From Phycisphaerales bacterium (GTDB lineage: Bacteria; Planctomycetota; Phycisphaerae; UBA1845), in assembly GCA_003597935.1 (NCBI GenBank), contig QZJT01000058.1, forward strand, positions 3,639 to 67,638: DNA of 64,000 nt. Direction: 5' to 3'. Shown piece after piece: positions 39,054 through 59,944 of the stretch (its first letter is position 1; every line of letters starts with the position of its first letter). Both the position numbers and the translations under genes were made by a program. Under the pieces are notes generated by a model. The model was not told where the DNA came from, made no database searches, and was given only the letters and a program-made list of their open reading frames with translations.

Positions 39054-39863
39054 GTGATCCAGCAGGACCGAGCGGAACCACCGAGGTTCGGGCTTGCCCG
39101 AGAATGCACGATCGTGAAAGACCCGGACGAACATCTCGGCTCAGACACCATCACCTCCACGACCCTCCTTCGCCGCGTGGCTACACCGGGCGGGGAGGCC
39201 GCGTGCAGGGACTTCGTGCGGCGGTACACGCCGATGGTGCGGGCGATTGCGGCGTCGTGCGGACTCTCGCACGAGGACGTGGAGGACGTGGTGCAGGAGG
39301 TGATGGCGGCGGCCGTGGGTGCGCTGCGCGAGGGGCGCTACGACCGCCAGCAGGGGCGGTACAAGCCTTTCCTCAAGGGCATCATCGGCCACAAGGTGCG
39401 GGACGCTATGGTTCGCGGGCGGAGCGCTCCAGGCCTGACGCCGGATGTTCGTGCCGGGGAGCGGAACACTCCGGACCAGGAACAGAACGCTTCCGCCGGG
39501 CAGCGAAGCACCGTGACGGGCAAGCAGAACGCCTCGCCCGCACCAACTCGCCTTCAGCGTTGGACATCGCGGGCGCCCCTTCCGCTCCACGAGGACGTTC
39601 CCGATCCGCACCCGTCGCCGGCCGAGGCCTTCGAGGCCGCGTTCGAGATCGAGTGGCGCAAGACGGCAATGGAAGAAGCGCTCGACGAGATCCGCCGCGA
39701 GTTCGACCCGGCCACGTTTCAGGCCTTCGACCTCTACGCCCGCAAGGACATGCCCGCCCGCGAAGTGGCCCGCCTGCTGGGCGTGTCGCGCAACGCCGTC
39801 TACATCGCCAAGACCCGCGTGCTGGCGCGTCTGCGCGAACTGCTTGGGCCGGAAGCGCCGTGA
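39054..39863 (+). CDS. ECF-like sigma factor with a long inter-domain linker
   Basis: Region 2 reads EDVEDVVQEVMAAAVGAL...YKPFLKGIIGHKVRD. Region 4 reads PAREVARLLGVSRNAVYIAKTRVLARL. It is a paralogue of the 24594 gene. The start codon is uncertain. Confidence 0.7.
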   Translation: MIQQDRAEPPRFGLARECTIVKDPDEHLGSDTITSTTLLRRVATPGGEAACRDFVRRYTPMVRAIAASCGLSHEDVEDVVQEVMAAAVGALREGRYDRQQGRYKPFLKGIIGHKVRDAMVRGRSAPGLTPDVRAGERNTPDQEQNASAGQRSTVTGKQNASPAPTRLQRWTSRAPLPLHEDVPDPHPSPAEAFEAAFEIEWRKTAMEEALDEIRREFDPATFQAFDLYARKDMPAREVARLLGVSRNAVYIAKTRVLARLRELLGPEAP

Positions 39864-39974
39864 CGGCCGCGCTCGCCGTGCGCGAGCGCTCGCGGGAAGC
39901 GTCGAGGCGAGTTGATCTTCCCCGACTCCCCTACTGCCTCATTCCCCTCGTCGCCAGAGGCGTCTCCGCGCCCC

Positions 39975-40205
39975 TCACCGACCCTTGAGCTTGCCTATGG
40001 CCTCGAGCACTTCATGGTGCTCCGGGAACCGGTCCTTCTCGTGCTTGCTCCAGACCTGGGCGCCGTCGACGTGTACGTCGAACACGCCGCCGCTTCCCTC
40101 GATCAGCGCGGACTCCACGCCGAACCTCTTGCGAATCGCATCCGCCAGACCGGCGGCTTTGGGAAGGTAGTTTCACTGCACGCAGTACTTGATCGTGACG
40201 TTCAT
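39975..40205 (-). CDS. SelW/Rdx-family selenoprotein; the in-frame TGA at 40173-40175 is read as selenocysteine
   Basis: AAGGAG lies 6 nt before the ATG at 40205. The translation is MNVTIKYCVQ-U-NYLPKAAGLADAIRKRFGVESALIEGSGGVFDVHVDGAQVWSKHEKDRFPEHHEVLEAIGKLKGR. It has the CxxU redox motif and the GGxFxV..DG...SK...RFP signature of SelW-like proteins. Confidence 0.85.
40142..40156 (-). promoter_or_regulatory. SECIS-like hairpin downstream of the UGA codon
   Basis: The RNA CCGCC-GGUCU-GGCGG begins 16 nt after the UGA. The GGUCU apical loop resembles the loop of the E. coli fdhF SECIS. Confidence 0.45.
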
Positions 40206-40269
40206 CGCTTGCTCCTTGACTCTTCGCACGGCGGCCGGCGCCGCTGCGAAGAACGTGCCGTCCTTGTCG

Positions 40270-40350
40270 AATCCGCCCGGAAAAGCCGGCTTGCCAAACC
40301 TGTCTGGAAAGGCCGGCTTGCCATATCCGCCCGGAAAGCCCGTCGCCTCG
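40270..40350. repeat. three roughly 27-bp tandem units (CCGCCCGGAAAAGCCGGCTTGCCA-like)
   Basis: GAATCCGCCCGGAAAAGCCGGCTTGCCA / AACCTGTCTGGAAAGGCCGGCTTGCCA / TATCCGCCCGGAAAGCCCGTCGCCTC, lying upstream of the selenoprotein gene. Confidence 0.55.
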
Positions 40351-40376
40351 AATCCGCACCGGGTTGAACGCCCGGG

Positions 40377-40451
40377 TCAGCCGGTGGCGAAGGCGGAAAG
40401 CGCCAGAAAGGCCAGGACGATGCCGATCAGAATGGCCAGAATAGACTCCAC
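40377..40451 (-). CDS. 24-aa hydrophobic peptide (candidate small membrane protein)
   Basis: GGAGG lies 6 nt before the GTG. The peptide is (M)ESILAILIGIVLAFLALSAFATG-stop. It is too short for the ORF track. Confidence 0.3.
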   Translation of the reverse strand: MESILAILIGIVLAFLALSAFATG

Positions 40452-40641
40452 CGTAATCCTCCACGAAGTCGGCCGAAAGGCTACCTCAGCGCCGGCCGAC
40501 TCGGCCGGTTGCCTCCAATGGATCGCTACCGCACGTTCGGCGCTCCGGCGTAGGAGCGCCCCCGCTTCGCTGGGGATGATACGTCCGCGGGCCGGCGCTG
40601 CAAGGCGCCGACCGACGCCCACGCCGGCCTCGACCGGGCCT

Positions 40642-41022
40642 CTACCTCGGGCGCTTCTCGCGGAACGCCGGCGCCGCATCGAGCGTGAAGACCACGATTT
40701 CCTCGCCGGTCATCGTGCTGATGTCGTGGTGCAGGCTTCGGATCTGGGCGCCGGTGATTCCCTGCACAATGGGTTCCAGCGTCGGCCGGGCCGCTTCCAT
40801 CAACAAGGTGCGGACCTGCTTGAGCAGGTCGCGCCCTTTTTCATGGGGAAGCGTGCCGACGCGTTGTTGCTCGGCCGGGGTCAGGGTGCCCTGCATGCGG
40901 ACCACGAGGAGGTCGCCGATCAGGTGAGCATGGACGTCCTTTGGACCGCGGCCCATGCACTCCTGCACAAAGCGGCCCATCGCCTGACAGATGGCGGCCT
41001 CGATTTCGCCCTGGGTGTTCAT
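40642..41022 (-). CDS. DUF2294 family protein
   Basis: GEIEAAICQAMGRFVQECMGRGPKDVHAHLIGDLLVVRMQGTLTPAEQ...HHDISTMTGEEIVVFTL matches the DUF2294 pattern. Confidence 0.8.
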   Translation of the reverse strand: MNTQGEIEAAICQAMGRFVQECMGRGPKDVHAHLIGDLLVVRMQGTLTPAEQQRVGTLPHEKGRDLLKQVRTLLMEAARPTLEPIVQGITGAQIRSLHHDISTMTGEEIVVFTLDAAPAFREKRPR

Positions 41023-41199: not shown

Positions 41200-41410
41200 A
41201 GTGGCGACGTTTGGGGAGGCCCGGCCGGGGCCGCCTTGGACGCCGTACTGAAGAAATCGGATGACTGACCAGAGGGCAGCCCGGCCCGGCCGGGTGGCCC
41301 GCTGACGAGTAAGCCGACGTGATCGAGCGCCCGCGGGCGCTCCATCACGTCGGCTTTTTTTGCTTTGGCGCGGCGCAGCGCGGTCGTCGCGGCAAGACGA
41401 GGTGACGGCA
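41200..41410 (+). promoter_or_regulatory. structured GC-rich 5' leader (candidate riboswitch or attenuator) ending in an intrinsic terminator
   Basis: It lies between the promoter and the DUF2294 start. It contains several GC hairpins (GGCCC-GGCCG-GGGCC, CCCGGCC-C-GGCCGGG) and then the terminator at 41313-41361. Confidence 0.45.
41313..41361 (+). terminator. strong Rho-independent terminator
   Basis: GCCGACGTGAT pairs with ATCACGTCGGC (a perfect 11-bp stem). The inner palindrome GAGCGCCCG/CGGGCGCTC extends the stem. Seven T residues follow. Confidence 0.8.
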
Positions 41411-41827
41411 ATGGACATACCCAACGCGACCATGGCCGAGCAGATTGCCGCGGCGGCCCGCGTCTTCGAGCGCCAGAGAACCGGGCTCGTTCCCAGGTCG
41501 GTGAGCGTCGTGCAATCCGACAAAACGCTGGTGGTCACGCTGCACGGGGCGCTGTCAGCCGCCGAGGAGACCCTCTCCCGGTCTGCGGAAGGCGCCGCCA
41601 AGGTGCGGGAGTTTCATCGCGAATTGTTCGCCAGTGCATCGGCCGCCATGCGGGCGGAGATCAGACGCATCACCGGCGTCGACGTGTGCGAGGCCGCCGC
41701 CGAGGTCGATCCATCCACGGGCAACGTGGTGGCGGTCTTTTCGACCGGGACGATCGTACAGGTTTTCCTGCTCCAGAGCAGCATCCCGCCCGGCGCATGG
41801 AACGCCGTCGGCCAGAAGGATCGCTGA
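41411..41827 (+). CDS. DUF2294 family protein (divergent paralogue)
   Basis: GAGGTG lies 6 nt before the ATG. MDIPNATMAEQIAAAARVFERQRTGLVPRSVSVVQSDKTLVVTLHGALSAAE...DPSTGNVVAVF follows the same architecture as the 40642 gene. Confidence 0.75.
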   Translation: MDIPNATMAEQIAAAARVFERQRTGLVPRSVSVVQSDKTLVVTLHGALSAAEETLSRSAEGAAKVREFHRELFASASAAMRAEIRRITGVDVCEAAAEVDPSTGNVVAVFSTGTIVQVFLLQSSIPPGAWNAVGQKDR

Positions 41828-42321
41828 CGAGTCGACCGAGCGAGGTGCGCGTTTGTGGGATATCGCAGTGAACTCGATGGCGTCAACGAAGTCCAACAAC
41901 GCCTCTGGGAGTACCGGAATGGGGAGAGTGCGCCGGGCTCCCAGGGGCTTTTTTTGGGCGTTCATGGGCGATGCGCCGTGCGGTAACACGGCGCGGGATG
42001 AAAGGACGACGTATATCGTTGAGAGCACTCTTCCAGCAGCTTTCGGCGCCCTCGACCACGACACGGAAGCGAGGCCCGTGGGGCGGGCAGCGATGACGAT
42101 CGTGAAGAAGCCGGTCGACATTCCGGAACTCGCACTCGTACTTCGGGCACTCGTGGGGGCCGCCGAGTCGTGGCAGCAGACACGCTCCGCAAACAAAGAC
42201 TGCACGACCGGGAGCGCCGCGCGATTCACGCGGGACGCCGTTCCGCGTGGATCGCCCGGCGGCGCCGACAAGCTCAGAGTGGTTCGTCTCTATCACCGTG
42301 CGCGATCACGCGCCGGCAGCG

Positions 42322-42366
42322 AGCCGCGGGCTCCTGCTTGCCGGCAGGCGGGTCAGCGCGGGCGGC
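42322..42366. repeat. REP family B, long form
   Basis: GAGCCGCGGGCTCCTGCTTGCCGGCAGGCGGGTCAGCGCGGGCGG. The same ends as the short form enclose an extra internal palindrome. Confidence 0.65.
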
Positions 42367-42652
42367 GCTGATTCGCGCACGGTGATATAGGATGCGCTGG
42401 GTCATGGGAGTCGCCCCGATAAGATGGGACATGCGCCGGTATGGTGAATCAGTGCGTTGTGCGGACCTCCCAGGGGCGCAGGAGCGGAAGATGGAGTTTC
42501 TCCGGAGGGAATTGAGATGAAACAACGGTCCTGATGGACCGACCTCAGGTGCAGTGAACGCGAGCGATGGCTCAAGGTGTTGAAGTGAACATGGCGGCGA
42601 ATGTCGCCGTGGCGGTCGTCTGCTGACCGCCCGCTCCGAATGGAGGATCGAG

Positions 42653-42808
42653 ATGATTGGGACGATTGTACTGGTACTGCTGATTCTGATGCTGGTCGGC
42701 GCGCTGCCCCGATGGGGTCATAGCCGGGACTGGGGTTATTATCCCAGCGGAGGGCTTGGCCTGGTGGTGTTGATTGTGGTCATCCTGTGGCTTGCGGGGC
42801 GCATTTGA
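42653..42808 (+). CDS. DUF3309 family small membrane protein (51 aa), not in the ORF track
   Basis: GGAGG lies 5 nt before the ATG. MIGTIVLVLLILMLVGALPRWGHSRDWGYYPSGGLGLVVLIVVILWLAGRI matches the DUF3309 pattern. Confidence 0.75.
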   Translation: MIGTIVLVLLILMLVGALPRWGHSRDWGYYPSGGLGLVVLIVVILWLAGRI

Positions 42809-43189
42809 TTCCCAACGTTGCAGACGATGGGATCGTCGAATGAAAAACAGCGTGTGCAGGAGAATCGGACTCGAAGCGATGGCGCGCGACGTCATTGTTT
42901 GCAGTGACCGGAAACAGGCAGGCGAGCTGCGATAAACCCGTTCCAATCTGGCCTTTACGAGCGTCACGCAAGGACACGCCCATGTTGATAGTTTGTGGAC
43001 TTGTCGCCGGACGCGGCGCCCGTCGCAGCAAATGCGCGATCGGCGCGATGGCCTGATGTATGCGGAGAACGGCGATCGTGAAGAACACGCGGCCGTGCCA
43101 CGGATGATCCGGGAAGGGGGCCGGTGTGGGAAGGATACGGCGGCGCCCGCGGCCGAGTCCCTGCGTAAACCCGATCTTGAGAGTGACGG

Positions 43190-47804: not shown

Positions 47805-49526
47805 TCACTCGGGATAACGCTCGTCCCGGTGATTCTCCCCATGGCACAGCAGGGTACACGAGCCGCTCAGGCGGCCGGTGTCACGGAACTCCAGTCGCCC
47901 GCTCTGGGGGTCCGGCCGGACAATCGTCGTATCGAAGTTGATCAGCCGGGTGTGGTCGCCGCTACCGCCCGGCACCAGGTTGCTCACGCCGTGGGGGGCA
48001 TGGCAGGCGGAACAGGGCGTGCGCTCTTCGACAATGTGCATCCGATGTTCGGAGAAGCTCTCGTCGGAGAGGATGCTGGTGCGCTCGTGACACTTGTAGC
48101 ACAGCGCGTAGGCGGACGCGGACTCCGGCGTGTCGTCGTCGGTGACGTATTCGCGTTCCAGCAGGAAATCGTAGATCGAGCCGTGGGGGCCGTCCGGCCC
48201 CGCGCCGCCGCCCCGCTGCCCGCTGTCGCTGTTGTGGCAGTCGGTGCAGCGCAGGAGCGATCCGCGCGGCACGTTGGGGACCAGGCTGGGCGACTCGGAG
48301 CTGACCGACGCCGCCGCCACGGGGTGGAAACTTTCGTTGGTGGGCTGAAACAGCAGGCGGACGTTTGACGTCTGCGACTGACGCGGCACGGCGCCGGGCA
48401 CCGATACCGCCGTATCGGCGTGGCAGCGATAACAGACCTCGTACTCGAACTGCGCTTCCTCGACTTCGGCGCCGCCGGACGACACGCCGCGCGTCTTCAG
48501 CAGCGTCTGTCCGATGCGGCGGTAGCCCCCCCCCCGTTCCGGCGCCATCGCCGCGTGGCCGTTGTGGCAGTCGGCGCATTCCACGTGGGTGTTGTCCACC
48601 AGCGCGGGTTCCGCCGGGTCGTGCCTGGCGCTGTAGCGTCGCGGGTCGTGCCCGCTGATCTTGTCCAGCTCCGTCTGAATGTCGGTCTTCGCCACGCGTC
48701 CGTCGTGGCAGATCAGGCAGTTTCTCTCCTCGTCGCCGAAGAGCAGCAGCCGGTCGGGTCCGCCGGCCGTGTGCGGCCGGTGGCAGCTTCGGCAGGCGTT
48801 CTGGGCCACGGTGTCGTAAGGCCAGCCCCCCTCCGAGTGCCCCCCGACCCGGGCCTGCGACAGCCGGTGCGACGCGCCGGCCCAGCCGCTCATCTGGTGG
48901 CAGGTCGTGCAGAGTTCGCCGAACTCGTTGGGCAGGACGAGGAAGTCGCCGTACTGATCGTTGTGGGCGTCGTGACACGCGGTACACTGAAGCTCGCCGT
49001 CCGTACCGAGCCGGATCTCAAGCGGCAGCGAGTGCGGGTCCGCGAGCTGCCCGTCGGCCAGCGCCAGCCCTGACGTGTAGAAGAAGCTGACCGGGTGATC
49101 GTCCGACAGATCCGTGCCCAGGTGGGCCGGACCGGACGGCAGGTAGTCTCCCGTGCGCATCTGGATGCGTTCCGCCCGGCTCAGGACGCTGCCCAGCGCG
49201 ATCGTACCGTCGTGACAGCTCAGACACAGTTTGCTGGCACCGGTCGGCTGGCCGGGTCTGGCATCCAGCGTCGACGAGCGGTAGATGCGGTAGTTGGCGC
49301 TGGGCACGTCGCGGTTCCATAGCGGGCGCAGTCCGCTGGTGTTGTGCGGCGCGTGGCAGAAGATGCAGACCTGCCGCTCCGTCTGAGCGCGCACCTGTCC
49401 CGGTCCGCCGGCGGACAGGTTGTGGACGGTGTCGGAGACGTGGAGCTGGGCGGCGGCGGTGGAGAGGAACACGAGCGTGAAGATTGCGACGGCTGTCCCA
49501 GGGACCGCCAGGCTCGCACCTGGCAA
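47805..49526 (-). CDS. multiheme c-type cytochrome, 11 CxxCH motifs plus one CxxxCH
   Basis: Motifs counted by eye: CIFCH, CLSCH, CTACH, CTTCH, CRSCH, CLICH, CADCH, CYRCH, CTDCH, CYKCH, CSACH and CTLLCH. I propose a TTG start at 49526 before the signal-like PGASLAVPGTAVAIFTLVFLSTAAA. The upstream ORF extension is REP sequence. Confidence 0.85.
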   Translation of the reverse strand: MPGASLAVPGTAVAIFTLVFLSTAAAQLHVSDTVHNLSAGGPGQVRAQTERQVCIFCHAPHNTSGLRPLWNRDVPSANYRIYRSSTLDARPGQPTGASKLCLSCHDGTIALGSVLSRAERIQMRTGDYLPSGPAHLGTDLSDDHPVSFFYTSGLALADGQLADPHSLPLEIRLGTDGELQCTACHDAHNDQYGDFLVLPNEFGELCTTCHQMSGWAGASHRLSQARVGGHSEGGWPYDTVAQNACRSCHRPHTAGGPDRLLLFGDEERNCLICHDGRVAKTDIQTELDKISGHDPRRYSARHDPAEPALVDNTHVECADCHNGHAAMAPERGGGYRRIGQTLLKTRGVSSGGAEVEEAQFEYEVCYRCHADTAVSVPGAVPRQSQTSNVRLLFQPTNESFHPVAAASVSSESPSLVPNVPRGSLLRCTDCHNSDSGQRGGGAGPDGPHGSIYDFLLEREYVTDDDTPESASAYALCYKCHERTSILSDESFSEHRMHIVEERTPCSACHAPHGVSNLVPGGSGDHTRLINFDTTIVRPDPQSGRLEFRDTGRLSGSCTLLCHGENHRDERYPE

Positions 49527-49572
49527 CTTGGCGGCGCGATGCTGCGATAGAGCGCGTTGTCCCGCAGGATGC

Positions 49573-49619
49573 TCCGCGCGGGCTGACCTGCCTGCCGGCA
49601 GGCAGGAGCCACGCGGCTC
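49573..49619. repeat. REP family B, long form
   Basis: TCCGCGCGGGCTGACCTGCCTGCCGGCAGGCAGGAGCCACGCGGCTC. Confidence 0.65.
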
Positions 49620-49656
49620 GCTCACTGGGCGTGCGCGCGCGCGCCAAAGCGGTGAG

Positions 49657-50691
49657 TTAGGGCTCAGTCTGGGGTGGTTGCGATGCGTCGGGCACATAAT
49701 CGAACACCTGCAAACGTTGATTGTATGAGTCGCAGATCCAGATGCGGTCCGTGTCGTCGATGAAGATGCCTCCGGGCAGCCAGAACTGGCCCGGGCCGGT
49801 CCCCTCTTCGCCGAAGGTCAGCAGCAGCCGGCCCTGGCGATCGAAGATCTGCACGTTCTCGAAGCGGGCGTCCACCACGTAGACGTGTCCGTCGCGGTCC
49901 AGCGCGATCGCCTTGGGCAGGGCCAGGTCTCCGAAGGCGTCCCCCGCCTGCCCGAAGGCCGCTTGCGGCGCTGCCAGTCGCGACAGGCGCTGCACGCGAT
50001 GGTTGCCGGCGTCGACGACCCACACGTCCTCTCCGGCGACGACCAGATCGCAGGGGAAGTTGAACTCCCCGGCGCCGCCGCCGCGCCGTCCCAGCGTGCG
50101 CACGGGCCGCCCGTCGGCGGTCAGGACCTTGACGTCATGGGCCAGCACGTCCACGACGTACAGCTCGCCGACCGCGTCGTCCCAGAAGACGCTCACCGGC
50201 CTCTGCACGTCGTCGGGCAGCGCCAGGGCCGAGTCGCTTCCGCCGTTTTCTGGCGAAACGCGGTAGACGGCGCCTTCTTCCGAGTCGCAGACGTACACGG
50301 CGCTGCCCGGCCCCACGCAGACGTCGACCGGCGTCAGCAGCGCGGCGTCGCCGACGTGCGTGATCCTGCGGTGCTGGCGGCGCTGCAGATCGAACAGGTG
50401 GACGCAGCGCCAACCGGGATCCGCCACCCACACGTATCGTCCGTCGCGGGACCGGACCGCGGAACGCGGACCGTTCAGCCGGTCCGGTTCCTTCGAGCCC
50501 AGCAGCAGGCCGCCCAGCCCCTCGAAGGGCTTGGGCGCCGGGCGCAGGTCGGCCGAGGTGCTGATCTGCCCGACGTAGCGGATGCGGGCCGGCTGACCGT
50601 CCGACGGCCACACGATCTGCGGGTGGGTCTCCTCGAAGATCGGCTTCAGCGGGCGCTGGCAGCCGGCGGTGACGAGTGCGATGGCGATCAT
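49657..50691 (-). CDS. NHL-repeat beta-propeller lipoprotein
   Basis: The ATG at 50691 gives MIAIALVTAGC (lipobox). NHL-like blades include RYVWVADPG, AVYVCDS, ELYVVDV, DVWVVDAGNHRVQRL, HVYVVDARFENVQIF and RIWICDSYNQRLQVF. Confidence 0.8.
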   Translation of the reverse strand: MIAIALVTAGCQRPLKPIFEETHPQIVWPSDGQPARIRYVGQISTSADLRPAPKPFEGLGGLLLGSKEPDRLNGPRSAVRSRDGRYVWVADPGWRCVHLFDLQRRQHRRITHVGDAALLTPVDVCVGPGSAVYVCDSEEGAVYRVSPENGGSDSALALPDDVQRPVSVFWDDAVGELYVVDVLAHDVKVLTADGRPVRTLGRRGGGAGEFNFPCDLVVAGEDVWVVDAGNHRVQRLSRLAAPQAAFGQAGDAFGDLALPKAIALDRDGHVYVVDARFENVQIFDRQGRLLLTFGEEGTGPGQFWLPGGIFIDDTDRIWICDSYNQRLQVFDYVPDASQPPQTEP

Positions 50692-50733
50692 CGTCAGCGC
50701 GAATGTCAGGAGAGGCGTTGCGGGGTGGCCCGT

Positions 50734-50808
50734 GCAATCCGAACCGCGACGGTGAGGGAGCGGGCCGGGCGCGATCTCGCTATCCGAACCGCGACCGTAA
50801 GGGAGCGG
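50734..50808. repeat. two REP family A copies
   Basis: GCAATCCGAACCGCGACGGTGAGGGAGCGG and CTATCCGAACCGCGACCGTAAGGGAGCGG. Confidence 0.75.
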
Positions 50809-51056
50809 CTTCTGCAGAGCGTTCACATCTGGAACGCGTTTCGAATCGTGGGAGAGCGCGCCGTGATCCACGCCTCCTCCGCCCCTTCGGGGCGGACGGT
50901 TGGGGGGGGGCGCTATCCACGGGTTCCGCTTCACCCGCCTTACGGCGGGCTTCGCTCCACCCGTGGCTACACTCCTTGGCCCCTCCGGAGCCGCAGAGTG
51001 GGCCCATGGCCCCTGCGAGGCAGCGGACTCGGCCGATGCCCCCTCCGGGGCCGCAG

Positions 51057-51176
51057 ACACCGGTTCAAAACCGGTGCCACACGGAGACACCGGTTCAAAA
51101 CCGGTGCCACACGGAGACACCGGTTCAAAACCGGTGCCACACGGAGACACCGATTGAAAACCGGTGTCACACGTGG
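51057..51176. repeat. four tandem 30-bp units, each with an internal hairpin (CACCGG-TTCAAAA-CCGGTG)
   Basis: ACACCGGTTCAAAACCGGTGCCACACGGAG occurs three times, followed by one degenerate copy. On the minus strand each unit reads TGGCAC-N5-TTGA. Confidence 0.85.
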
Positions 51177-51318
51177 GTCGTCGCCTCGCACGGGTCGAGG
51201 CGGATGGGTTGCGCCTAATCGGTGTCATTGGCCACACGAGTCTCTTCGTTCGTTCTTCGCCATTCGACATCCGCTTTTCATTCGTCATTCTCCTGCATCG
51301 ACCTTGGCCCTTCGCCCT

Positions 51319-53388
51319 TCAGAACCTCCTGCGCACCTGCACCAACAGGGCCGAATGGCGGTTGTCGGTGAAGTCGTCCTCGAAGGTGCCGTATTCGTAC
51401 GTCAAGCGGAACGACGTCTTCCGCACGTTGTATTCCAGCGATACGTCGGCGTCGACGCCGCGGTCGTCGCCGCTGAGCGTGTCCTGCAAGCGGCGATACT
51501 GCACCGCCCCCTCCACGTTGAGTCGGGCCGTGATCGGGTGGCGGTAGCGGCCTTCCAGCGACAGCAGCCGCGTCCGCCGCTCTTCGGCCGTCTCGAAACG
51601 GATGTCCGACCATCGGGCCGTCAGGGCGGCCGTGGCCCCGAAGTCGAAGCGGTGCGTGTACCCGGCATTGAGGCGTAGCGCGGTGAACGGGCTGATGGTC
51701 GATTCGTGGTCCTCGTGCTCGGCCCCCAGCGTCAGCCCGCCGCGGCGATACTCTACGCCCAGAATGTGTACGGTGAGGTCCTCTTCCTGAAAGCCCGTCG
51801 AGCGTTGCGGCGAAATCACCTGGTCCTGGTTGCGGAAGCGATAGTACGGCGTCAGGCCGAAATCGAACTCCTGGCGGATGCCGAAGCCGTGGCTGGTCGT
51901 GTCCAGCGTGAAGTCGCCGCCGACGTTGAGCACGTAGTCGATCAGGACGGTCTGGCCCTCGGCGATGAGGCCGGTGGGGTCGCGCTCGATCTCGATCCGG
52001 TTGCCGAAGACGCGGACGCGGTAGTCGCGGCCGGAGCCGTACAGCGTCGTGGCCTGCTCGTCGGTGATGACGATGCTGGCGACCTCAAGGTCCTGGGCCT
52101 GGAGGATGATCGGCTCGCCGTCCTGGAAGCGATGCGCCTCGTCGAACACCTCGACGCGTTGATCGCCGCCGCGGCGCTCCTGCCGCTGAAACGCGAAGCG
52201 GTAATCGGCCCGCAGCACGCCCCAGCGGTTCTTCTTGCGGTAGTCGAAGGAGGCGTTCCAGCCCACGCGGTCGACGTCCGCTCCCGATCCGAACGTCTGC
52301 TGCTGGCCGTACGCGCCGACCTGCGACGTGAGGCTCTCGTACAGTTGGTGCTCCAGCGATCCGCTCAGCAGCACCGAGCGTTCATCGATCGGGTCGCCGC
52401 CCGCCAGGCTCCCCTGTGTCCGGTCCAGCCACTCGAAGTCGAACCAGGAGCGCAGGTTCTCCGCGTGTTCGAGCCGCAGCCGCTCACGCCATTGGATGCG
52501 CTCGATATCGAACGTGCCGCGCTGATCGAGGAAGCTGAGCGTCGATTCGAGGTGGTGCTGGTGAAGCTCGCCGAAGGCCAGCCGATGGGAAAGCGAGGCG
52601 TCGTCGGAGTCGTAGTTGAATCCGAAGGGCGCCTGCTCGATCGACTGATGGCTGTAGCGCAGTCCCAGCGTGTTGGACGGGCTGAAGTTGTAGGCCGTGT
52701 CGAATCCGAAGACGGTGCTCTTCTGCTGGCGCTGCTCCTCGTCGGAGCCGAGCGCCTCGAACTCGCTGGTGGTGTGCTCGAAGTTGATGGAGGTGGGCGT
52801 CTTCTCGCTGACGTAGCGCCAGTCGAAGCCGTAACCGGTGGTGATCGTCTGCAGGCTGGGCAGGAACGGACGGGCGTCGATCGAGCGCCGGCGGCGGGCG
52901 AAGACGCTGGCCGGATAGGGCTTTTTTTTCAGGAACGTGGCGGAGAGGTCGAACTCATCGATGCTGCCGTCGTCGCTGCTGCGGCGGGTGACGCCGTCGC
53001 GCGTGTCCTCGAACTCCTGCTGCAACAGTCCGAACGTCCCCGCCAGGGCGAACTCCATCAGGTTCGGGTGATAGGTGTAGCCGTCCAGCGTCAGGCTCAG
53101 CTCCTCCTCGAAGATCGTCTCGTCCGTCGAGACGTCCGTCCCGCCCACCTTCGACCGCTGATCGCGGGAGTTCTGACGGGCGACGAAATCGAGGTATCCG
53201 CCCACGTCGGTGACGTGTACGTCGCCGACGCCGCGGCGACGGGCGCCTTCGCCGGTGCAGCCGGCGGTGCAGATCGTCAGCGCCAGGCCGGACAGGCACG
53301 CCAGGGCGATGAGACGTTCGGCGCCGGCCGCGGTTCCGGTCGTCCACGGGGGGGGGGTGCCCAGAACCTGTCGGCGTCGGTGGCTCAA
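51319..53388 (-). CDS. outer-membrane beta-barrel protein (porin-like, 689 aa)
   Basis: The signal/lipobox-like N-terminus is LACLSGLALTICTAGC. Alternating amphipathic strands rich in Y/F/R/D run throughout. The C-terminus ends VQVRRRF (terminal Phe). Its start overlaps the stop of the pentaheme gene (ATGA). Confidence 0.75.
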   Translation of the reverse strand: MSHRRRQVLGTPPPWTTGTAAGAERLIALACLSGLALTICTAGCTGEGARRRGVGDVHVTDVGGYLDFVARQNSRDQRSKVGGTDVSTDETIFEEELSLTLDGYTYHPNLMEFALAGTFGLLQQEFEDTRDGVTRRSSDDGSIDEFDLSATFLKKKPYPASVFARRRRSIDARPFLPSLQTITTGYGFDWRYVSEKTPTSINFEHTTSEFEALGSDEEQRQQKSTVFGFDTAYNFSPSNTLGLRYSHQSIEQAPFGFNYDSDDASLSHRLAFGELHQHHLESTLSFLDQRGTFDIERIQWRERLRLEHAENLRSWFDFEWLDRTQGSLAGGDPIDERSVLLSGSLEHQLYESLTSQVGAYGQQQTFGSGADVDRVGWNASFDYRKKNRWGVLRADYRFAFQRQERRGGDQRVEVFDEAHRFQDGEPIILQAQDLEVASIVITDEQATTLYGSGRDYRVRVFGNRIEIERDPTGLIAEGQTVLIDYVLNVGGDFTLDTTSHGFGIRQEFDFGLTPYYRFRNQDQVISPQRSTGFQEEDLTVHILGVEYRRGGLTLGAEHEDHESTISPFTALRLNAGYTHRFDFGATAALTARWSDIRFETAEERRTRLLSLEGRYRHPITARLNVEGAVQYRRLQDTLSGDDRGVDADVSLEYNVRKTSFRLTYEYGTFEDDFTDNRHSALLVQVRRRF

Positions 53389-53975
53389 GGGTCACGTTGG
53401 AGCAGGAAGAACCGTCCATCCCCTCCGTGGGGGTCATGGCACACCGTGCAGGCGTCTTCCGACAGCTCCTGGTGGTGGAGACCGGCGGTCATGTCGTCGC
53501 GCGAGTGGCACTGAAGGCAGACGCCCGGCTCCGGCAGCTTGAGCAGGTGCAGCTCGACGGATGAGTGCGGTTCATGGCAGGTCAGGCAGGCGTCGACCGC
53601 GACCGGACCGTGAAGGAACATACGCTTGCCGGGCGGGTCCGCGTGGCACAGGGCGCACAGTCCCCGGTCGACGGGTTTGACCAGCCGCCCGCTGAAGGCG
53701 TCGTGACAGCCGTCGCAGCGGTCGGACGCATACGGCGGGTGTACGGAGAGCGGCTGCCGCACCACCCGCCGCCGCTCGTGGGGCGACGTGGTGTCCGCAG
53801 GCAGCGGTCTACCGCCGGGGCCCAGGGCGACCGGGACGGCGTTCGGATCGGGGACGCCGTCAAAGAAGAAGGTCAGCACCTGATAGCGCGTCGCCTGGGC
53901 GCAGGCCAGCCCCAGTCCGACCACCCCCGTGGCGCCGAGCAGATTCACGAGTTGGCGTCGTCCGTCGGACGTCAC
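53385..53975 (-). CDS. pentaheme c-type cytochrome (c3/c7-like, periplasmic)
   Basis: The motifs are CDGCH, CALCH, CLTCH, CLQCH and CTVCH. It has an N-terminal signal/TM segment. Confidence 0.85.
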   Translation of the reverse strand: MTSDGRRQLVNLLGATGVVGLGLACAQATRYQVLTFFFDGVPDPNAVPVALGPGGRPLPADTTSPHERRRVVRQPLSVHPPYASDRCDGCHDAFSGRLVKPVDRGLCALCHADPPGKRMFLHGPVAVDACLTCHEPHSSVELHLLKLPEPGVCLQCHSRDDMTAGLHHQELSEDACTVCHDPHGGDGRFFLLQRDP

Positions 53976-53998
53976 GGCCGGCCCTTCTTACGTCGCGA

Positions 53999-55306
53999 TC
54001 ACGCCCCCTCCGGCGCCGGTTCGGCGCCGGCGTCCTGCCCGTTGTCGGCCGGGTCGATCGGGGACTGCGCCCCCTGCGGCAGGGGCAGCGGAGTCTGGTC
54101 CTCATCCACCGGCACCGGCGGCAACGCCCGGATCTGTGATTCCGCCAGCCTGTACCCCTCGGGGAACTGCCCGAAGGCGTACACGTTGATCAGCCGCGGC
54201 CCGTACTGGCTGACCACGAACAGCAGGTAGTCCACCGAGAAGTCCTTGTGGACGTATTGCTGGAAGAACGCCGCGGAGTTCTTGTCCACGGCCAGCGTCG
54301 ACGGCAGCACCAGCGCCCCGGGCAGGTTCCCCGGCCCGGCGAAGCGCATCAGGATGTGGCCCTCCGGGTCGAACATCTGCACGATCTCGGTGGCGCCGTC
54401 GGTGACGTAGATGATCCCGTCCGGGCCGGCCCGGATGCCGCGCGGGCGGCCGAACTGGCCCAGCCGATAGCCCGGCGCCCCCTTCACCCACACCATCTCG
54501 CCCTCCAGCGTGAGCTTCTGAACGCGGAAGTTGTGCGTATCGCTGACGTAGAGGAAGCCGTCCGGGCTGGTGCAGAGGCTGCTGGGACGATTGAACTGGC
54601 CCGGTTCGCGTCCGGGGCCGCCGAAGGTGCGCAGCACCTCGCCGGTGGTGCGGTCCAGCACCACCACCTGGCAGGTCTCGTCGTTGTCGAGCACGAACAG
54701 TTCGTTGCCGTGCAGCGCCACGTCCACCGGGTAGCCGGGCTGAGGGACGTCGAAGGCGGAGACGAAGTTGTCGCTGGGTCCGAAGACGACGATCTGCCGC
54801 CGGAACGGATCGGCCACGAACTTGTAGCCCAGTGGGTCGATGCAGATGTTGATGGGCTTGCGCAGCCGGCCGGGGCCCTGATAGCCGAAGACCGAGTAGG
54901 TCTTGTTCTTGAAGTCCAGCTTGCAGATGCAGATGTCCTTGGTGTCGCAGACGTACACCGACCCGTCGTGGACGGCCACGCCGTAGGGCTTGTTGATCTG
55001 CCGGGGGGCCTGGGGTTCTTCGCCCAGGATGAACTCCTCGAACGACGTGCGCGGTGGTTCGACCTCGGCCGCGCCGCTGGCCCACGTGAGGAACTGGATG
55101 CGGGGCTTCTCCGGCGGCGAGGGGAAGAAGAGCCAGGTCGGCTCGGCTTTCTCGGCCGTTTTGCAGCCGCAAGCCAGCATCAGCAGGCCGGCCGCGGCCA
55201 CGGGGACGTAACCTGGGCGTAGACGTTGCGGCACACCTGACCTCCACTCGCCCGCGTCCGATAGAGACGGGCCCGAACCCGGGGGCGTCCTCCACCGGCG
55301 ATTCAT
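53999..55306 (-). CDS. NHL-repeat beta-propeller lipoprotein
   Basis: The start MNRRW is followed by AAAGLLMLACGC (lipobox). Blades include SVYVCDT, YKFVADPFRRQIVVF, ELFVLDN, FLYVSDTHNFRVQKL and IIYVTDGATEIVQMF. Confidence 0.8.
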   Translation of the reverse strand: MNRRWRTPPGSGPSLSDAGEWRSGVPQRLRPGYVPVAAAGLLMLACGCKTAEKAEPTWLFFPSPPEKPRIQFLTWASGAAEVEPPRTSFEEFILGEEPQAPRQINKPYGVAVHDGSVYVCDTKDICICKLDFKNKTYSVFGYQGPGRLRKPINICIDPLGYKFVADPFRRQIVVFGPSDNFVSAFDVPQPGYPVDVALHGNELFVLDNDETCQVVVLDRTTGEVLRTFGGPGREPGQFNRPSSLCTSPDGFLYVSDTHNFRVQKLTLEGEMVWVKGAPGYRLGQFGRPRGIRAGPDGIIYVTDGATEIVQMFDPEGHILMRFAGPGNLPGALVLPSTLAVDKNSAAFFQQYVHKDFSVDYLLFVVSQYGPRLINVYAFGQFPEGYRLAESQIRALPPVPVDEDQTPLPLPQGAQSPIDPADNGQDAGAEPAPEGA

Positions 55307-55338
55307 ACAAGCAGCGTACCAGACGAACGCCGCGCATG

Positions 55339-55369
55339 AAAAACGCACACCCGCAGTCGCGGGTGTGCG
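55339..55369 (-). terminator. intrinsic terminator after the tetraheme cytochrome gene
   Basis: The minus-strand RNA forms CGCACACCCGC-GACU-GCGGGUGUGCG, an 11-bp stem, followed by UUUUU. Confidence 0.6.
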
Positions 55370-55430
55370 CTGCCAGCGATCCTGAAACAGCGGGCGGGTG
55401 TCGCCGCAAGCGACGCTCCGCCGGAACAGC

Positions 55431-56072
55431 CTACTTGTTATGGCACTCCAGGCAGATCACGCTTTCTTCCAGCGGCGCCCGCAGGAACTTGCCCAGGCCG
55501 GGGTTGTGCGGGTTGTGACAGGAACTGCACTCGACCCGCTCGACGCCCTGCAGCTCGATCAGCCGCACGCCCAGCGCCTTGCCGCGGGTCATAAACTCGT
55601 TCGGGTCGTTGAAATCCTCGCCCGGGGCGGGGTACTCGATGCCGATCGGGTGGTCGTTCGACAGGTCCGTGCCCAGGTTCGCGGGCGAATCCGGGTCGAT
55701 GACCACGTTGCCCTGCTTGCCGCCGTAGCTGTCGATGGCGGTGACGCCGTCGTGGCAGCTCAGGCACTTCTTGCTGGTGCCCTCCGGCTGACCGGCCTCG
55801 TTGTGGTACATCTGGAACGTCTCCTGCGTCTCCGCGTGGTTCCACAGGACGTTCTCCTCCCCGGCCTGCAAGGCGTTGTGCGGCACGTGACACGGCAGGC
55901 AGACCTGGTTCAGCTCGATCTCCACGCCGGGATAGTTGTTCAGGTTGTGAGGGGAGTTGACGATGCTCTCGATCGGCCAGGTCTGCGGATCGTAGGGGTC
56001 GAACTGCCCCAGGGCCGTCGTCGCAGAGCCCAGCAGCGCCACTGTCACCACGATTGCTGATGCACGTTTCAT
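55431..56072 (-). CDS. tetraheme c-type cytochrome, secreted
   Basis: GGAGG lies 5 nt before the ATG at 56072. The signal is MKRASAIVVTVALLGSATTALG. The motifs are CLPCH, CLSCH, CSSCH and CLECH. SPHNL and DLSNDHP motifs are shared with the 47805 cytochrome. Confidence 0.85.
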   Translation of the reverse strand: MKRASAIVVTVALLGSATTALGQFDPYDPQTWPIESIVNSPHNLNNYPGVEIELNQVCLPCHVPHNALQAGEENVLWNHAETQETFQMYHNEAGQPEGTSKKCLSCHDGVTAIDSYGGKQGNVVIDPDSPANLGTDLSNDHPIGIEYPAPGEDFNDPNEFMTRGKALGVRLIELQGVERVECSSCHNPHNPGLGKFLRAPLEESVICLECHNK

Positions 56073-56241
56073 GCTAACCTCCCCGGGGATCCTGTTCCCC
56101 ATTCGATGCCGTCTGACGCCACAGGCGCCGGCAAGCGTCGTCAGTCCGACGCGTCGTCTGTTCCAATCTCTCCGCCCCGGCCGCACCCACGCCGCCGCGG
56201 TGCGCAGCCACTGAGGCGGACAAAACGCTCCGCCATTCTGC

Positions 56242-56258
56242 AAGCACCCTCCGTGCCG
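56242..56258 (-). promoter_or_regulatory. candidate sigma54 (-24/-12) promoter upstream of the tetraheme cytochrome gene
   Basis: The minus strand reads CGGCACGGAGGGTGCTT. The GG and GC dinucleotides are 10 nt apart, as in TGGCACG-N4-TTGCW. It lies about 170 nt upstream of the ATG at 56072. Confidence 0.4.
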
Positions 56259-56446
56259 GACGATCGGGACGGGCGGCGCTGAGCCGCCGGGCTGAGCGCG
56301 CCATTCCCAGGCTCTCCGTAACCCGTTATCCGTAAAGTGGTTGTGATCGTCGGCGTCTTGGCCGTCGCCGGCGGCGGCCGGCGCGTCCGCGTCCGGCTTT
56401 CTCAGGAACGGGAACGGCGCGGCGGCAATTCCAGATGCTGAGACAC

Positions 56447-57448
56447 CTACTTCGACGCCCCGTAGACCTCTTCCAGCGCCTTGCGGTAGCACTCGACGGC
56501 CAGATCGCAGCGGCCGCGGCGCTCGTGCAGCCGGCCGAGTTCGAACAGGACCGGACCTTTGCGCGGCGACAGCTTCAGAGCGGCGTTCAGGTGTCGTTCG
56601 GCCGCCTCATCGTGGCCGCGGCGCAGCTCCAGTCGCGCCAGGGGCAGGTTCAGGATGGGCGCCATCGGTTCGTGTTCCAGGTGCGGTTGGAGGCAGGCCG
56701 CGGCGTCGTCGAGCCGGTCCAGCGCCAGGTAGACGGTCGCCAACTCGGCCGCCACCTGCACGGCGTCGCGCTGCCGCCGGATCTCCTCCAGGATGACCAG
56801 CGCGTCCTGGTACTTGCCCTCTTCGATCAGTGTGTGGGCGAAGGCCAGGCGGGTCTGAAACATGTCGTTCCAGGCGTCGCGCTCCTGACGGATCTGCTTC
56901 AGTTGCTCGTCGTGAGCCGCCTGGTCGATCCGGCCGCGGAGCAGATCGAGGTGAATGCCCACCGATCGGGCGTAACTCGGCGGCAGGTGAGGCAGTTCGA
57001 ACCGCAGCACGCCGCCGGCGTCCACCAGCAGCGTGGTGGGCGTGACCACCAGTCCGAAGTCCCCATACACCTTCCGCTTCGGATCCAGTGCGATGGGAAA
57101 GGCCAGGCCCAGATCGGTACTGACCTTGCGGTAGTGATCCCCCGCCTGATCGTCGGACGAGACGGCCAGGATGGTGACGGCGGCACGGTCGCCGCCCGCC
57201 GCGATCTGCTGCGCCGTTTGCAGCGCCGTGACCGACCCTTCCTGCCCGGGCCGCACGAACAGCAGCAGCAGCGGCCGGCCCTTGCAACCGGCCAGGTCGT
57301 ACGTCTTTCCGTCCAGCCCGTTCACCGAGAAGGGCGGAAGTGGGTCGCCGATCTTGACGTTGCGCAGCGCCTCGCTCGACTGCGTCATCGCGCCGAGGGC
57401 CAGCAGCAAAGATACCAGGGTGAGCAATCGGCCGATGGTCTGTGGCAT
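56447..57448 (-). CDS. secreted redoxin/TlpA-fold protein lacking the CxxC motif, fused to TPR repeats
   Basis: The signal is MPQTIGRLLTLVSLLLALGA. The AhpC/TSA-like fold reads PLPPFSV.GLDGKTYDL....GRPLLLLFVRPGQEGS, with no Cys at the active-site position. The C-terminus has TPR-like helices. Confidence 0.65.
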   Translation of the reverse strand: MPQTIGRLLTLVSLLLALGAMTQSSEALRNVKIGDPLPPFSVNGLDGKTYDLAGCKGRPLLLLFVRPGQEGSVTALQTAQQIAAGGDRAAVTILAVSSDDQAGDHYRKVSTDLGLAFPIALDPKRKVYGDFGLVVTPTTLLVDAGGVLRFELPHLPPSYARSVGIHLDLLRGRIDQAAHDEQLKQIRQERDAWNDMFQTRLAFAHTLIEEGKYQDALVILEEIRRQRDAVQVAAELATVYLALDRLDDAAACLQPHLEHEPMAPILNLPLARLELRRGHDEAAERHLNAALKLSPRKGPVLFELGRLHERRGRCDLAVECYRKALEEVYGASK

Positions 57449-57470
57449 GGCGTGGCGCTCCGTTACTGCC

Positions 57471-58829
57471 TCACTCCCTTCTTCCGACCGAGGCGTCGGA
57501 AAGATTCACAAAGGGCGAACCGCGGTCATAACGGTACGGCTTGTGGCATCCCGGCTGGCATGCACCGCCGGTGTCCGTCTGCTGGAAGTTGATCGGGATC
57601 GCCCAGTTCCCGAAGGGCACGGAATCCCGAATGTGCTTCGGGTTGCGGCTGGCGTGTACCTCGTGACAGGCCCGGCAGGTCCGCCCTTTCGTTTCACGAT
57701 TGACGTGCAGGAAGTGGAGGTTCTGGTCGCCGTTGCGGAAGTTCGTCAGCCGGTCGGTGCGCTCGGTCCGCACCAGGTCCGGCTCGTGACACTCGAAGCA
57801 CAGGGCGTAGTTCTCCTCCTGATAGGCGGAGTAGAACTTCTCCGGGTACGCCTGCGTCAACATGCGGAACTGCGAGCCGCCGTGCGTCTCGTGACACCCG
57901 GAGCACTGTCGCTGGGCGATCGGACCGTGTACGGAGGGATTGTCGGCGAAGAGCTTTTTCAGATCGGCGATCCGGCCGTGGGGCGTGTCCAGCGGCTTGT
58001 CGTGGCAGGACAGGCACAGGCTCATGGCGTCGGTGCGGAGGATGTGCTCGAAGTCGGAAGCGTGCGGATCATGGCAGGTGGCACAGGCCTGACCGGTCAT
58101 GACGGCGTCGTGCTTGACCGCCGCGGTCCGGATGCGCTCTTCCATCTCCTGGTGACACTTGAGGCAGGCGTCCGGCCCCGACGCGGACAGCAGCATCCGA
58201 TCGTCCGACCCGTGGGCGTTATGGCAGGCGGTGCAGTCGCTGGTCACCGGACCGTGGACGTAGGCCCGCCCGGCCAGTTGTGTCTTGACGTCGGTGTGAC
58301 ACTTGACGCAGAACTCGTTGCGGGCGGCGAACAGCAGTCCCTCGTGGTCGGAAGCGTGGGCGTTGTGGCAGGCCAGACACCCGCCGGCCGCCACCGGACC
58401 GTGCAGAAACTCCATACCGTCCGTCACGCCGACGTGGCATTGCCGGCAAAGCTGTTCGACCGTCGCGGCGCGCAGAAAATACTTCGCGTCGCTGCCGTGC
58501 GGATCATGGCAGGAGACGCACTGGCCCTCGGCCTCGGGGCGGTGGCGCACGGAACCGGCGTGCCGCTCCAGGTGGCAGAACGAGCACAACGCGGCCCCTT
58601 CGGACGTCAGTCGGAACCGGTGGTCCTGCTTGCTGACCACCACGTGGCACGCTTCGCACGAGCCCACCGACGTCGGCCCGTGTACGAACGGGCGTTGCAG
58701 CAGGCCGCCGTGGCAGGCGGCATCGGTGCAACTGCCGGAGTAGTCTTTCGCCCGCGTCTGGGCGTAACTGGTGGAAACCGTCAGCAGCGCGCTGACGAGT
58801 GCGGTGTGGAGAACCGGGGACGAAATCAT
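57471..58829 (-). CDS. multiheme c-type cytochrome, 13 CxxCH plus CxxxCH and CxxxxCH variants
   Basis: The motifs are CEACH, CSFCH, CVSCH, CRQCH, CLACH, CVKCH, CTACH, CLKCH, CATCH, CLSCH, CSGCH, CFECH and CRACH. Variants are CTDAACH and CQPGCH. The repeated HGP...C..CH..H spacing is typical of doubled-CXXCH domains. Confidence 0.9.
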   Translation of the reverse strand: MISSPVLHTALVSALLTVSTSYAQTRAKDYSGSCTDAACHGGLLQRPFVHGPTSVGSCEACHVVVSKQDHRFRLTSEGAALCSFCHLERHAGSVRHRPEAEGQCVSCHDPHGSDAKYFLRAATVEQLCRQCHVGVTDGMEFLHGPVAAGGCLACHNAHASDHEGLLFAARNEFCVKCHTDVKTQLAGRAYVHGPVTSDCTACHNAHGSDDRMLLSASGPDACLKCHQEMEERIRTAAVKHDAVMTGQACATCHDPHASDFEHILRTDAMSLCLSCHDKPLDTPHGRIADLKKLFADNPSVHGPIAQRQCSGCHETHGGSQFRMLTQAYPEKFYSAYQEENYALCFECHEPDLVRTERTDRLTNFRNGDQNLHFLHVNRETKGRTCRACHEVHASRNPKHIRDSVPFGNWAIPINFQQTDTGGACQPGCHKPYRYDRGSPFVNLSDASVGRRE

Positions 58830-59944
58830 GGGTGACCTCCCTGCGAAGCGGCGTCCGTGCGGTTGAATTCCACGGTCATGGCGCCCTGGGCCGTGGTGAT
58901 CACCCGTTCCTTGCCCAGCTCGATCCAGATCGGTATCGGCGCCGCCCCCGGCGGCGCCACTTCCAGCCGCAGGGCCGGGCGGGCGTCGGCGGAAAGCGAC
59001 ATCTGGTATTCCTCGTGCAGCCGCGCGGCCGGCACGAAACGGGAAACTCGAAACGTATACTTGGATTCCGGAATGGGGACCTTTTCATCGAGCGCCGCCT
59101 GCTGCGTGGTGATGGTCCGCCCCAGCCGCTGGAAAACCTCCGGCGCTGAGCCGGCGACGCTGACCAGAACGTAGTCGGGCGTCGTTCCCACGCGCGCCGA
59201 CGGATAGAACAGCGTCACCTCGAACTGCGGCAGCGCCGTTCCACCGGTGTTCATCTCCGGGTGGCGGGCGAACACCCACCGCTCGTCCATCTTGCCTTCG
59301 GCGTGCAGCTCGACCCGGATCGCCGGGTTGACCGGTTCATCGGAGAGGTTCTTCGGCCGCCCGGTGTCGGGGTCGAGGACCAGGTGCGGATAGACCTCGA
59401 CCACCTTGATCCGACATTTCGGCTCGGCCAGTTCCCGGGTCCGGCCCACCATCAGCGGCGCCTCCGTTACGGCGTCGCCGCGGCGCACCGTCAGGGACGG
59501 GTGAAGGTCCGACTCGCGCGTGAACTGTCGGAGCAACTCGTAGCGCTGGGCCGCGTCGGCGACCGCCATGAAGCGCCAGAAACCGATCAGGCTCACCAGC
59601 CGATTGCGGGTGGGGTCATCCGCCAGCAGCCACCGTTCGTAGGTTTGTTTCGGTCCTTCGAGAACCAGCAGCGCCGCCGCCCGTCCGTCGCCCTCCCCCG
59701 CCGGGACTACCAGTTGGGTGACCACGGCCTGAGAGAGGTACCGTGTGATGCGCGGCGACGGCCAGGGTGAGGGCATGGTGACGCCGACGTCCAGTTCCAC
59801 CGGTTCCATCGAGGGCGTCAAATCCAGCACCCGCTCCGCCACCACCGGACCCGACGTCCCCTGAGCCTGGCAGAGAAAACGGTATTGAATCGCGGCCGCC
59901 GGCCCCGGATCCGGTTTCGACGTCTGCGCCGACGCGGCTTGCAC
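58826..59944 (-). CDS. periplasmic protein of unknown function (faint resemblance to the ResB/Ccs1 soluble domain); true start probably upstream at a non-ATG codon
   Basis: Its stop overlaps the next start (ATGA at 58826-58829). The frame stays open to about 60012 and there encodes RRRDPGWRRAVVCAAAACVQAASA, a signal-like segment. Confidence 0.55.
   Translation of the reverse strand: MQAASAQTSKPDPGPAAAIQYRFLCQAQGTSGPVVAERVLDLTPSMEPVELDVGVTMPSPWPSPRITRYLSQAVVTQLVVPAGEGDGRAAALLVLEGPKQTYERWLLADDPTRNRLVSLIGFWRFMAVADAAQRYELLRQFTRESDLHPSLTVRRGDAVTEAPLMVGRTRELAEPKCRIKVVEVYPHLVLDPDTGRPKNLSDEPVNPAIRVELHAEGKMDERWVFARHPEMNTGGTALPQFEVTLFYPSARVGTTPDYVLVSVAGSAPEVFQRLGRTITTQQAALDEKVPIPESKYTFRVSRFVPAARLHEEYQMSLSADARPALRLEVAPPGAAPIPIWIELGKERVITTAQGAMTVEFNRTDAASQGGHP

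Follow-up and report, generated by a model that had tools for sequence, protein, structure and literature searches.

SelW-like proteins with a CxxU motif have been reported since 2005 as being among the most abundant prokaryotic selenoproteins, including in marine metagenomes (PMC1088965, PMC2398784). In the GOS dataset, they are the most abundant selenoproteins, with 427 Sec forms compared to 56 Cys forms (PMC2398784), and Cys homologues are rare in organisms that use Sec (PMC1794560). Eukaryotic SELENOW, also an Rdx-family member, likewise carries its CxxU motif near the N-terminus (PF10262; PMC1088965). Complete gene sets for Sec insertion are carried by some Planctomycetes (PMC4807772). 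A literature search found no publication linking the Phycisphaerae with selenoproteins.

The closest described systems are the bacterial SelW-like selenoproteins (PF10262, formerly pfam05169; TIGR02174), which are known from the Sargasso Sea/GOS metagenomes and from the genomes of Deltaproteobacteria, Clostridia and Symbiobacterium. These proteins are ~75-80 amino acids in length with an N-terminal CxxU, and their genes have an intragenic SECIS hairpin directly 3' of the UGA. The gene described here was found in a 64-kb stretch of DNA (the window), and has the same domain, motif position, size and hairpin placement. The sole difference is the Phycisphaerae-type Planctomycetota host, and the architecture is nothing new. 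The eukaryotic SelW genes, in contrast, have a kink-turn SECIS in the 3'-UTR that operates with SBP2 and eEFSec, whereas the window gene has an in-frame, bacterial-type hairpin after the UGA (PMC1088965). On the comparative evidence set out below, we hold with high confidence that positions 39975-40205 of the minus strand encode a 76-residue SelW-like selenoprotein, in which the UGA at codon 11 is decoded as Sec with the hairpin.

Gene layout and family membership

The elements of the gene, all on the minus strand, are listed in window coordinates.

39975..40205, minus strand: full SelW-like (Rdx family) CDS, 76 codons plus stop, with the UGA at codon 11 taken as Sec
40212..40217, minus strand: Shine-Dalgarno sequence AAGGAG, read from the sequence, with a 6-nt spacer (caagcg) before the ATG
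40203..40205, minus strand: ATG start codon, read from the sequence
40173..40184, minus strand: redox motif Cys8-Val-Gln-Sec11 (TGC GTG CAG TGA), from the sequence and its translation
40173..40175, minus strand: putative Sec codon UGA, codon 11, TGA in 162/163 loci
40142..40156, minus strand: candidate bacterial SECIS hairpin, with stem CCGCC (40156-40152), loop GGUCU (40151-40147) and stem GGCGG (40146-40142)
39975..39977, minus strand: true stop TGA, from the sequence and its translation

The read-through product is 76 amino acids in length (MNVTIKYCVQ-U-NYLPKAAGLADAIRKRFGVESALIEGSGGVFDVHVDGAQVWSKHEKDRFPEHHEVLEAIGKLKGR). Residues Y7, C8, V9, Q10 and U11 are encoded by TAC-TGC-GTG-CAG-TGA, and 65 further codons follow the UGA at codon 11 before the TGA stop at 39977-39975. 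The minus-strand translation matches the 76-residue product with a YC-VQ-U motif that was named in the original prediction. The AAGGAG placed there 6 nt 5' of the ATG is present at 40217-40212, just beyond the range given for the gene, and the coordinates agree for the CCGCC-GGUCU-GGCGG hairpin described as starting 16 nt past the UGA. The first nucleotide of this hairpin lies 16 nt 3' of the UGA, and the hairpin spans codons 17-22 (Ala-Ala-Gly-Leu-Ala-Asp). The proposed family core requires one correction: the GG, F, V, DG, SK and RFP elements are all present, but the gap from DG to SK is four residues and not six (GG.F.V..DG....SK....RFP). No SECIS-like hairpin was identified 3' of the true stop at 39977-39975, and a promoter and terminator scan of window positions 39800-40700 detected nothing.

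The profile scans of the 76-residue protein were performed with U replaced by C. The protein matched the Pfam family PF10262 (Rdx) over residues 2-70 of 76, with an E-value of 1.9e-21 and a score of 76.4 bits (cutoff 22.6). It also scored 69 bits against TIGR02174 (CXXU_selWTH; cutoff 34.2) and 90 bits against NF041051 (cutoff 88). By these curated HMM thresholds, the gene belongs to the Rdx/SelT-SelW-SelH family, and the SelW-like identity first proposed for it is borne out by all three profiles.

The matches in the PDB included the bacterial Rdx-family proteins 2ojl, 3dex, 2fa8, 2oka, 2obk and 2p0g, as well as human C17orf37/MIEN1 (2ljk), aligned over residues 2-72 with E-values from 1.8e-11 to 8e-7. 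The motif aligned column for column, with the Sec11 column falling on the second Cys of C-T-Q-C in 2ojl and 3dex, where the window protein has C-V-Q-U. In this alignment, Sec11 stands opposite the Cys of the CxxC relatives as a classic Sec/Cys pair. There are differences from the solved Cys-form relatives: all seven PDB chains are 103-117 amino acids in length, ~25-40 residues longer than the window protein; 2ojl and 3dex have a three-residue insertion ahead of the IEGSGG-equivalent strand that is absent from the window protein; and the identity, judged by eye, is at most ~35%. A thioredoxin-like fold may be inferred for the window protein from its homology to these seven solved family members.

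The product would be a small, single-domain Rdx-related protein of a family whose members are thioredoxin-like. Its Cys8-x-x-Sec11 pair most likely cycles between the selenol/thiol and selenenylsulfide states, making it a putative thiol-dependent oxidoreductase by analogy with the family.

The UGA codon in homologous loci

A total of 163 loci were compared, comprising 80 from genomes, 80 from metagenomes and three reached via a named Phycisphaerae protein; 143 of these were unique. The genome loci were mostly from Phycisphaerae and other Planctomycetota MAGs, with some labelled as Deltaproteobacteria, Acidobacteriota, Thermoanaerobaculia and others. As the peptide patterns used for retrieval sit in the C-terminal half of the protein, they do not skew the count of Sec versus Cys forms.

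Codon 11 was TGA in 162 of the 163 loci and CGA in one, with no Cys codon in any of them, and the C-x-x-U motif was accordingly present in 162 loci. The 162 Sec forms to no Cys forms observed here may be set beside the 427 to 56 of the GOS data. The decapeptide 5' of the Sec codon was conserved as M-x-[IV]-[ST]-I-[KET]-Y-C-x-x. An ATG or GTG was present exactly 10 codons 5' of the Sec codon in 123 of the 143 unique loci, and a Shine-Dalgarno-like 4-mer occupied the equivalent position in 121. On the 3' side of the TGA, the frame was intact and conserved among the homologues, which stop at about the same place (TAG in 61, TGA in 58 and TAA in 41). The earlier reading had been offered as one that would fall if orthologues stopped at the TGA and showed no conservation past it; the opposite was found, with both flanks conserved around a TGA present in all but one locus.

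The exception is a locus in the MAG Phycisphaerae bacterium swi_bin.202 (L012:284-511; JBKJYI010000534.1), where a single T-to-C change gives CGA (Arg) and the hairpin is intact. The CGA may be an artefact of sequencing or assembly, or the copy may have been inactivated recently.

TGA is the ordinary stop codon of 17 of the 31 Pfam-supported genes in the window, the SelW-like gene included, and is the commonest stop. The recoding at codon 11 would therefore be site-specific. A reassigned code, with TGA as a sense codon throughout, is ruled out by the same 17 genes, and the code is standard. When the window was scanned for pairs of ORFs that share a frame, are bridged by a TGA and have a coding-like GC3, 18 candidates emerged. 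The other 17 were rejected, as only the SelW-like gene had a redox motif and plausible coding on both sides of the TGA.

The hairpin 3' of the UGA codon

The published bSECIS model specifies an apical loop of 3-9 nt, an upper stem of 4-16 bp, a UGA-to-loop distance of 16-37 nt and an MFE of no more than -7.5 kcal/mol, with a G in the first two loop positions (N1 G [G|U] N N2) (PMC13188914). The window element compares with the model as follows.

Apical loop, 3-9 nt required: 5 nt, GGUCU
Upper stem, 4-16 bp required: 5 bp
UGA to loop, 16-37 nt required: 21 nt
MFE, <= -7.5 kcal/mol required: -9.3 to -9.5 kcal/mol

The pair between G/A25 and U29 of the alignment fits N1-N2 of the loop pattern. 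The element had been called SECIS-like at the outset, and that description is strengthened by its position within all four published ranges and by the compensatory synonymous changes described below. A search of the whole window against Rfam at gathering thresholds gave no match, and only chance-level hits (E >= 4) were found around the gene; this absence may mean little.

The original prediction likened the loop to the apex of the fdhF SECIS. The sequence of the E. coli fdhF element was confirmed in 5,419 of 5,426 E. coli genomes and then folded. Both elements are intragenic, immediately 3' of the UGA, with a conserved G-U in the loop, and they share an identical apical hexamer, GGUCUG, which encodes Gly-Leu in both. 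The resemblance is confined to this apex, and the stem, bulge, loop size and spacing differ. The predicted fold of the fdhF SECIS is a ~40-nt hairpin that begins at the UGA: one U of its upper stem is unpaired, its apex is a GGUC tetraloop, and the loop lies 18 nt from the UGA. In the window element, by contrast, there is just a 5-bp stem capped by a loop of 5 nt (or by a triloop closed by G.U), at a UGA-to-loop distance of 21 nt; the bulged U and the long lower stem are missing, and the element sits one codon (3 nt) farther from the UGA. It fits the general bSECIS model and not the fdhF-type architecture.

The thermodynamic stability of the element was unexceptional in its context. The folding z-scores with flanking sequence were 0.3 and 0.25 relative to dinucleotide shuffles, and a 46-nt stretch gave -0.59, while the 20-nt hairpin alone folded at -9.5 kcal/mol (z = -2.0). 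Among the synonymous recodings of the window gene, 45% folded equally well, but only 1.2% kept the stem and the loop GU. Because stability with flanks is unremarkable in a sequence of 67% GC, the case for the hairpin rests on the comparison between genes.

In the alignment of the 143 unique sequences, the stem runs across the A-A-[G/S]-L-A codons, and two of its five pairs consequently join third codon positions. The pair 21:33, which joins the wobble positions of Ala17 and Ala21, was CG in 118 sequences, GC in 12, UA in seven, UG in four and GU in two. It was thus able to pair in 143/143, with changes on both sides in 21 sequences. The pair 24:30 was CG in 141 sequences and UA in one. The covariation across the whole helix was 0.146 compared to 0.046 ± 0.006 in shuffled alignments; none of 500 shuffles reached the observed value, and all of the slid registers scored lower. 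RNAalifold independently recovered four of the five stem pairs of the same helix together with the G/A25-U29 pair.

The codon usage in the loop was similarly restricted. The loop codon was GGT in 85/85 of the Gly cases and AGT in 56/56 of the Ser cases, so that GGU or AGU was present in 141 of 142 sequences. In the remainder of these genes, GGT made up 94 of 888 Gly codons (10.6%) and AGT 16 of 375 Ser codons (4.3%). Given this restriction against background usage, G26-U27 is under selection at the RNA level. The codon for Leu20 was limited to CUG or UUG (YUG). Part of the conservation of the hairpin is at the protein level, as it overlaps the conserved A-A-G/S-L-A peptide. The synonymous-site pattern nevertheless indicates that the hairpin is maintained by selection on the RNA and not on the protein alone.

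Residue 19 (codons 19-20 correspond to window 40151-40146 and to alignment columns 25-30) was only Gly (GGU) or Ser (AGU), with the exception of one Arg (AGG), and residue 20 was almost exclusively Leu (CUG/UUG). The G-to-A change at alignment column 25 preserves pairing with the invariant U29. To judge from these substitutions, the SECIS requirement appears to dictate the overlapping protein sequence at residues 19-20, and the SelW-like family would be a clear natural example of a peptide constrained by the RNA element that overlaps it. The 143-sequence alignment provides a well-supported SECIS with synonymous-site covariation, and could seed a covariance model for the class.

In the mechanism that we favour, which draws on established bacterial Sec decoding, ribosomes would start at the ATG at 40205, guided by the AAGGAG. 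With the UGA of codon 11 in the A site, the 15-nt hairpin, with G-U at loop positions 2-3, would be bound by SelB carrying Sec-tRNA(Sec). The SelB·GTP·Sec-tRNA(Sec) complex would then deliver Sec to the UGA, and translation would proceed with no termination. We infer the binding of SelB and the insertion of selenium from that background, and the redox chemistry of the product from its family.

The window was searched for the components of this machinery. ARAGORN found no tRNA of any kind in the 64-kb window, and no tRNA-Sec in 649 kb flanking the homologous loci. Pfam analysis, which covered 40 of the 47 ORFs predicted in the window, detected neither selA nor selB nor selD, and E. coli SelA, SelB and SelD queries gave no tblastn match in the window or in the 649 kb of homologous loci. 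As there are no sel genes in the window, the Sec machinery is not linked to the SelW-like gene.

These searches are the main point in favour of read-through without Sec, whether by a near-cognate Trp or Cys, or with Cys inserted via the Sec machinery at low selenium, in which the hairpin would act as a generic stimulator. We regard this as very unlikely, although it survives better than the other alternatives considered here. In the alignment, residue 11 falls on the catalytic Cys of the CxxC relatives, and the hairpin has the G-U loop, spacing and size of a SelB-dependent SECIS in addition to the GGUCUG apex of fdhF. Furthermore, Cys codons would be expected among the 163 homologues if Cys sufficed, and none were seen. 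Under the selenoprotein reading, the SelW-like gene is a strong indirect marker of UGA-as-Sec decoding in its host. As to the host lineage, the LigA protein encoded in the window had a best database match of 82% identity, with the rest at ~54-68%, and the named matches were all from Phycisphaerae, Phycisphaerales or Planctomycetota, which puts the host among uncultured Planctomycetota of the Phycisphaerae type.

Annotation, genomic context and significance

The original prediction held that the ORF list splits the gene because codon 11 is TGA, and the program-made list indeed contains only a 47-aa, GTG-started fragment at the locus, downstream of the TGA. It also held that gene callers miss the gene. 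This is right insofar as the active site is lost, but N-terminally truncated versions are called: the public protein sets include this gene as shortened products of 57 and 47 aa. A protein search retrieved 31 homologues, all of 42-67 aa, which covered the C-terminal 49-83% of the query (~75% for most). Many of these calls start L/M-P-K-A-A-G-L-A, the first possible start past U-N-Y, which suggests that gene callers truncate the homologues alike. The public entries titled 'SelT/SelW/SelH family protein', 'Rdx family protein' and 'selenoprotein W-related protein' are truncations without the CxxU. The gene calls of NCBI, JGI and ENA all share this mis-annotation, which is systematic. With at least 31 homologues annotated without the catalytic CxxU, selenoproteins are under-called in the MAGs of Phycisphaerae and other Planctomycetota.

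Taken at face value, the truncation of this gene and of every one of the 31 retrieved homologues in the public protein sets, as well as the listed 47-aa GTG ORF, would fit a UGA that is a genuine stop, with a 10-residue peptide or none made upstream and the downstream part translated from an internal CTG or GTG start to give the 57- or 47-aa products. This is less probable still than read-through without Sec. The truncated products would be without the CxxU or CxxC that defines the family, and the called internal starts vary (L/M after U-N-Y, MADAIR, VESAL/VDSKL, MIEGSGG). The ten upstream codons, their register, the ATG position and the Shine-Dalgarno sequence are, in contrast, conserved over the 143 unique loci, and a genuine stop leaves the synonymous-site constraint on the hairpin without an explanation. 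A pseudogene or sequencing error, in which a Cys codon (TGC/TGT) was mutated or misread as TGA, is effectively refuted by the comparative data, since although TGA is one base from TGC/TGT and the CGA of L012 is itself one base off, TGA occupies this codon in 162 of the 163 independent assemblies, which represent many samples and phyla, with no Cys and with the downstream frame intact and conserved. The reading that we retain is that of a SelW-like selenoprotein with Sec at codon 11.

The genes nearest to the SelW-like gene, assigned by Pfam, are listed below.

39054-39863, plus strand: ECF-like sigma factor, convergent neighbour
40642-41022, minus strand: MpsC-family (PF10057) gene, directly upstream of the SelW-like gene
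41360-41827, plus strand: MpsC-family (PF10057) paralogue, divergent from the first

The recurring neighbours across the homologous loci were Rho (16/80), an MBL-fold hydrolase (13/80) and CoaE (12/80), none of which is present in the window. As the neighbourhood is not conserved and the recurrent genes are missing from the window, the context says nothing about function. Some Phycisphaerae MAGs share a conserved order of coaE, rho, the SelW-like gene and the MBL-fold hydrolase (L008, L010, L011, L013-L015, L017, L018, L023 and others), from which the window context differs.

Several other features of the window were noted. At 40263-40342, a 27-nt sequence is directly repeated three times in tandem (CTTGYCRAAYCYGYCYGGAAARGCCG; copies 73-81% identical). 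These repeats lie 58-137 nt 5' of the SelW-like ATG, within the 436-nt gap after the MpsC gene, and could belong to an operator or a promoter region. On the minus strand, an ORF of 40 aa (40202-40324) ends by overlapping the SelW start in an ATGA and probably does not represent a gene. The ~1.36 kb at 41828-43189 contains no ORF passing the length and GC3 filter. Farther away, genes for multihaem c-type cytochromes, with paired CXXCH motifs and MtrC/MtrF-like domains, form a large cluster at 47805-59944 and 63400-63999 on the minus strand. Among them lie genes for NHL-repeat beta-propeller proteins and for an AhpC/TSA-TPR fusion, and genes for a sigma-54 activator and a histidine kinase come next. 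The cluster resembles an extracellular electron-transfer or redox module.

Only the host lineage and the systematic truncation in annotation are new here, as the family and the mechanism are already known. The importance is practical more than conceptual: a mis-annotation is exposed, and neither mechanism nor family is new. With 162 TGA and no Cys codons among the closest 163 loci, we lean, by a small margin of confidence, towards the broader view that an obligately Sec SelW-like protein is near-universal, and systematically mis-annotated, in the Phycisphaerae and allied Planctomycetota. If this is true, Sec decoding would be far commoner in these poorly cultured lineages than the literature records.
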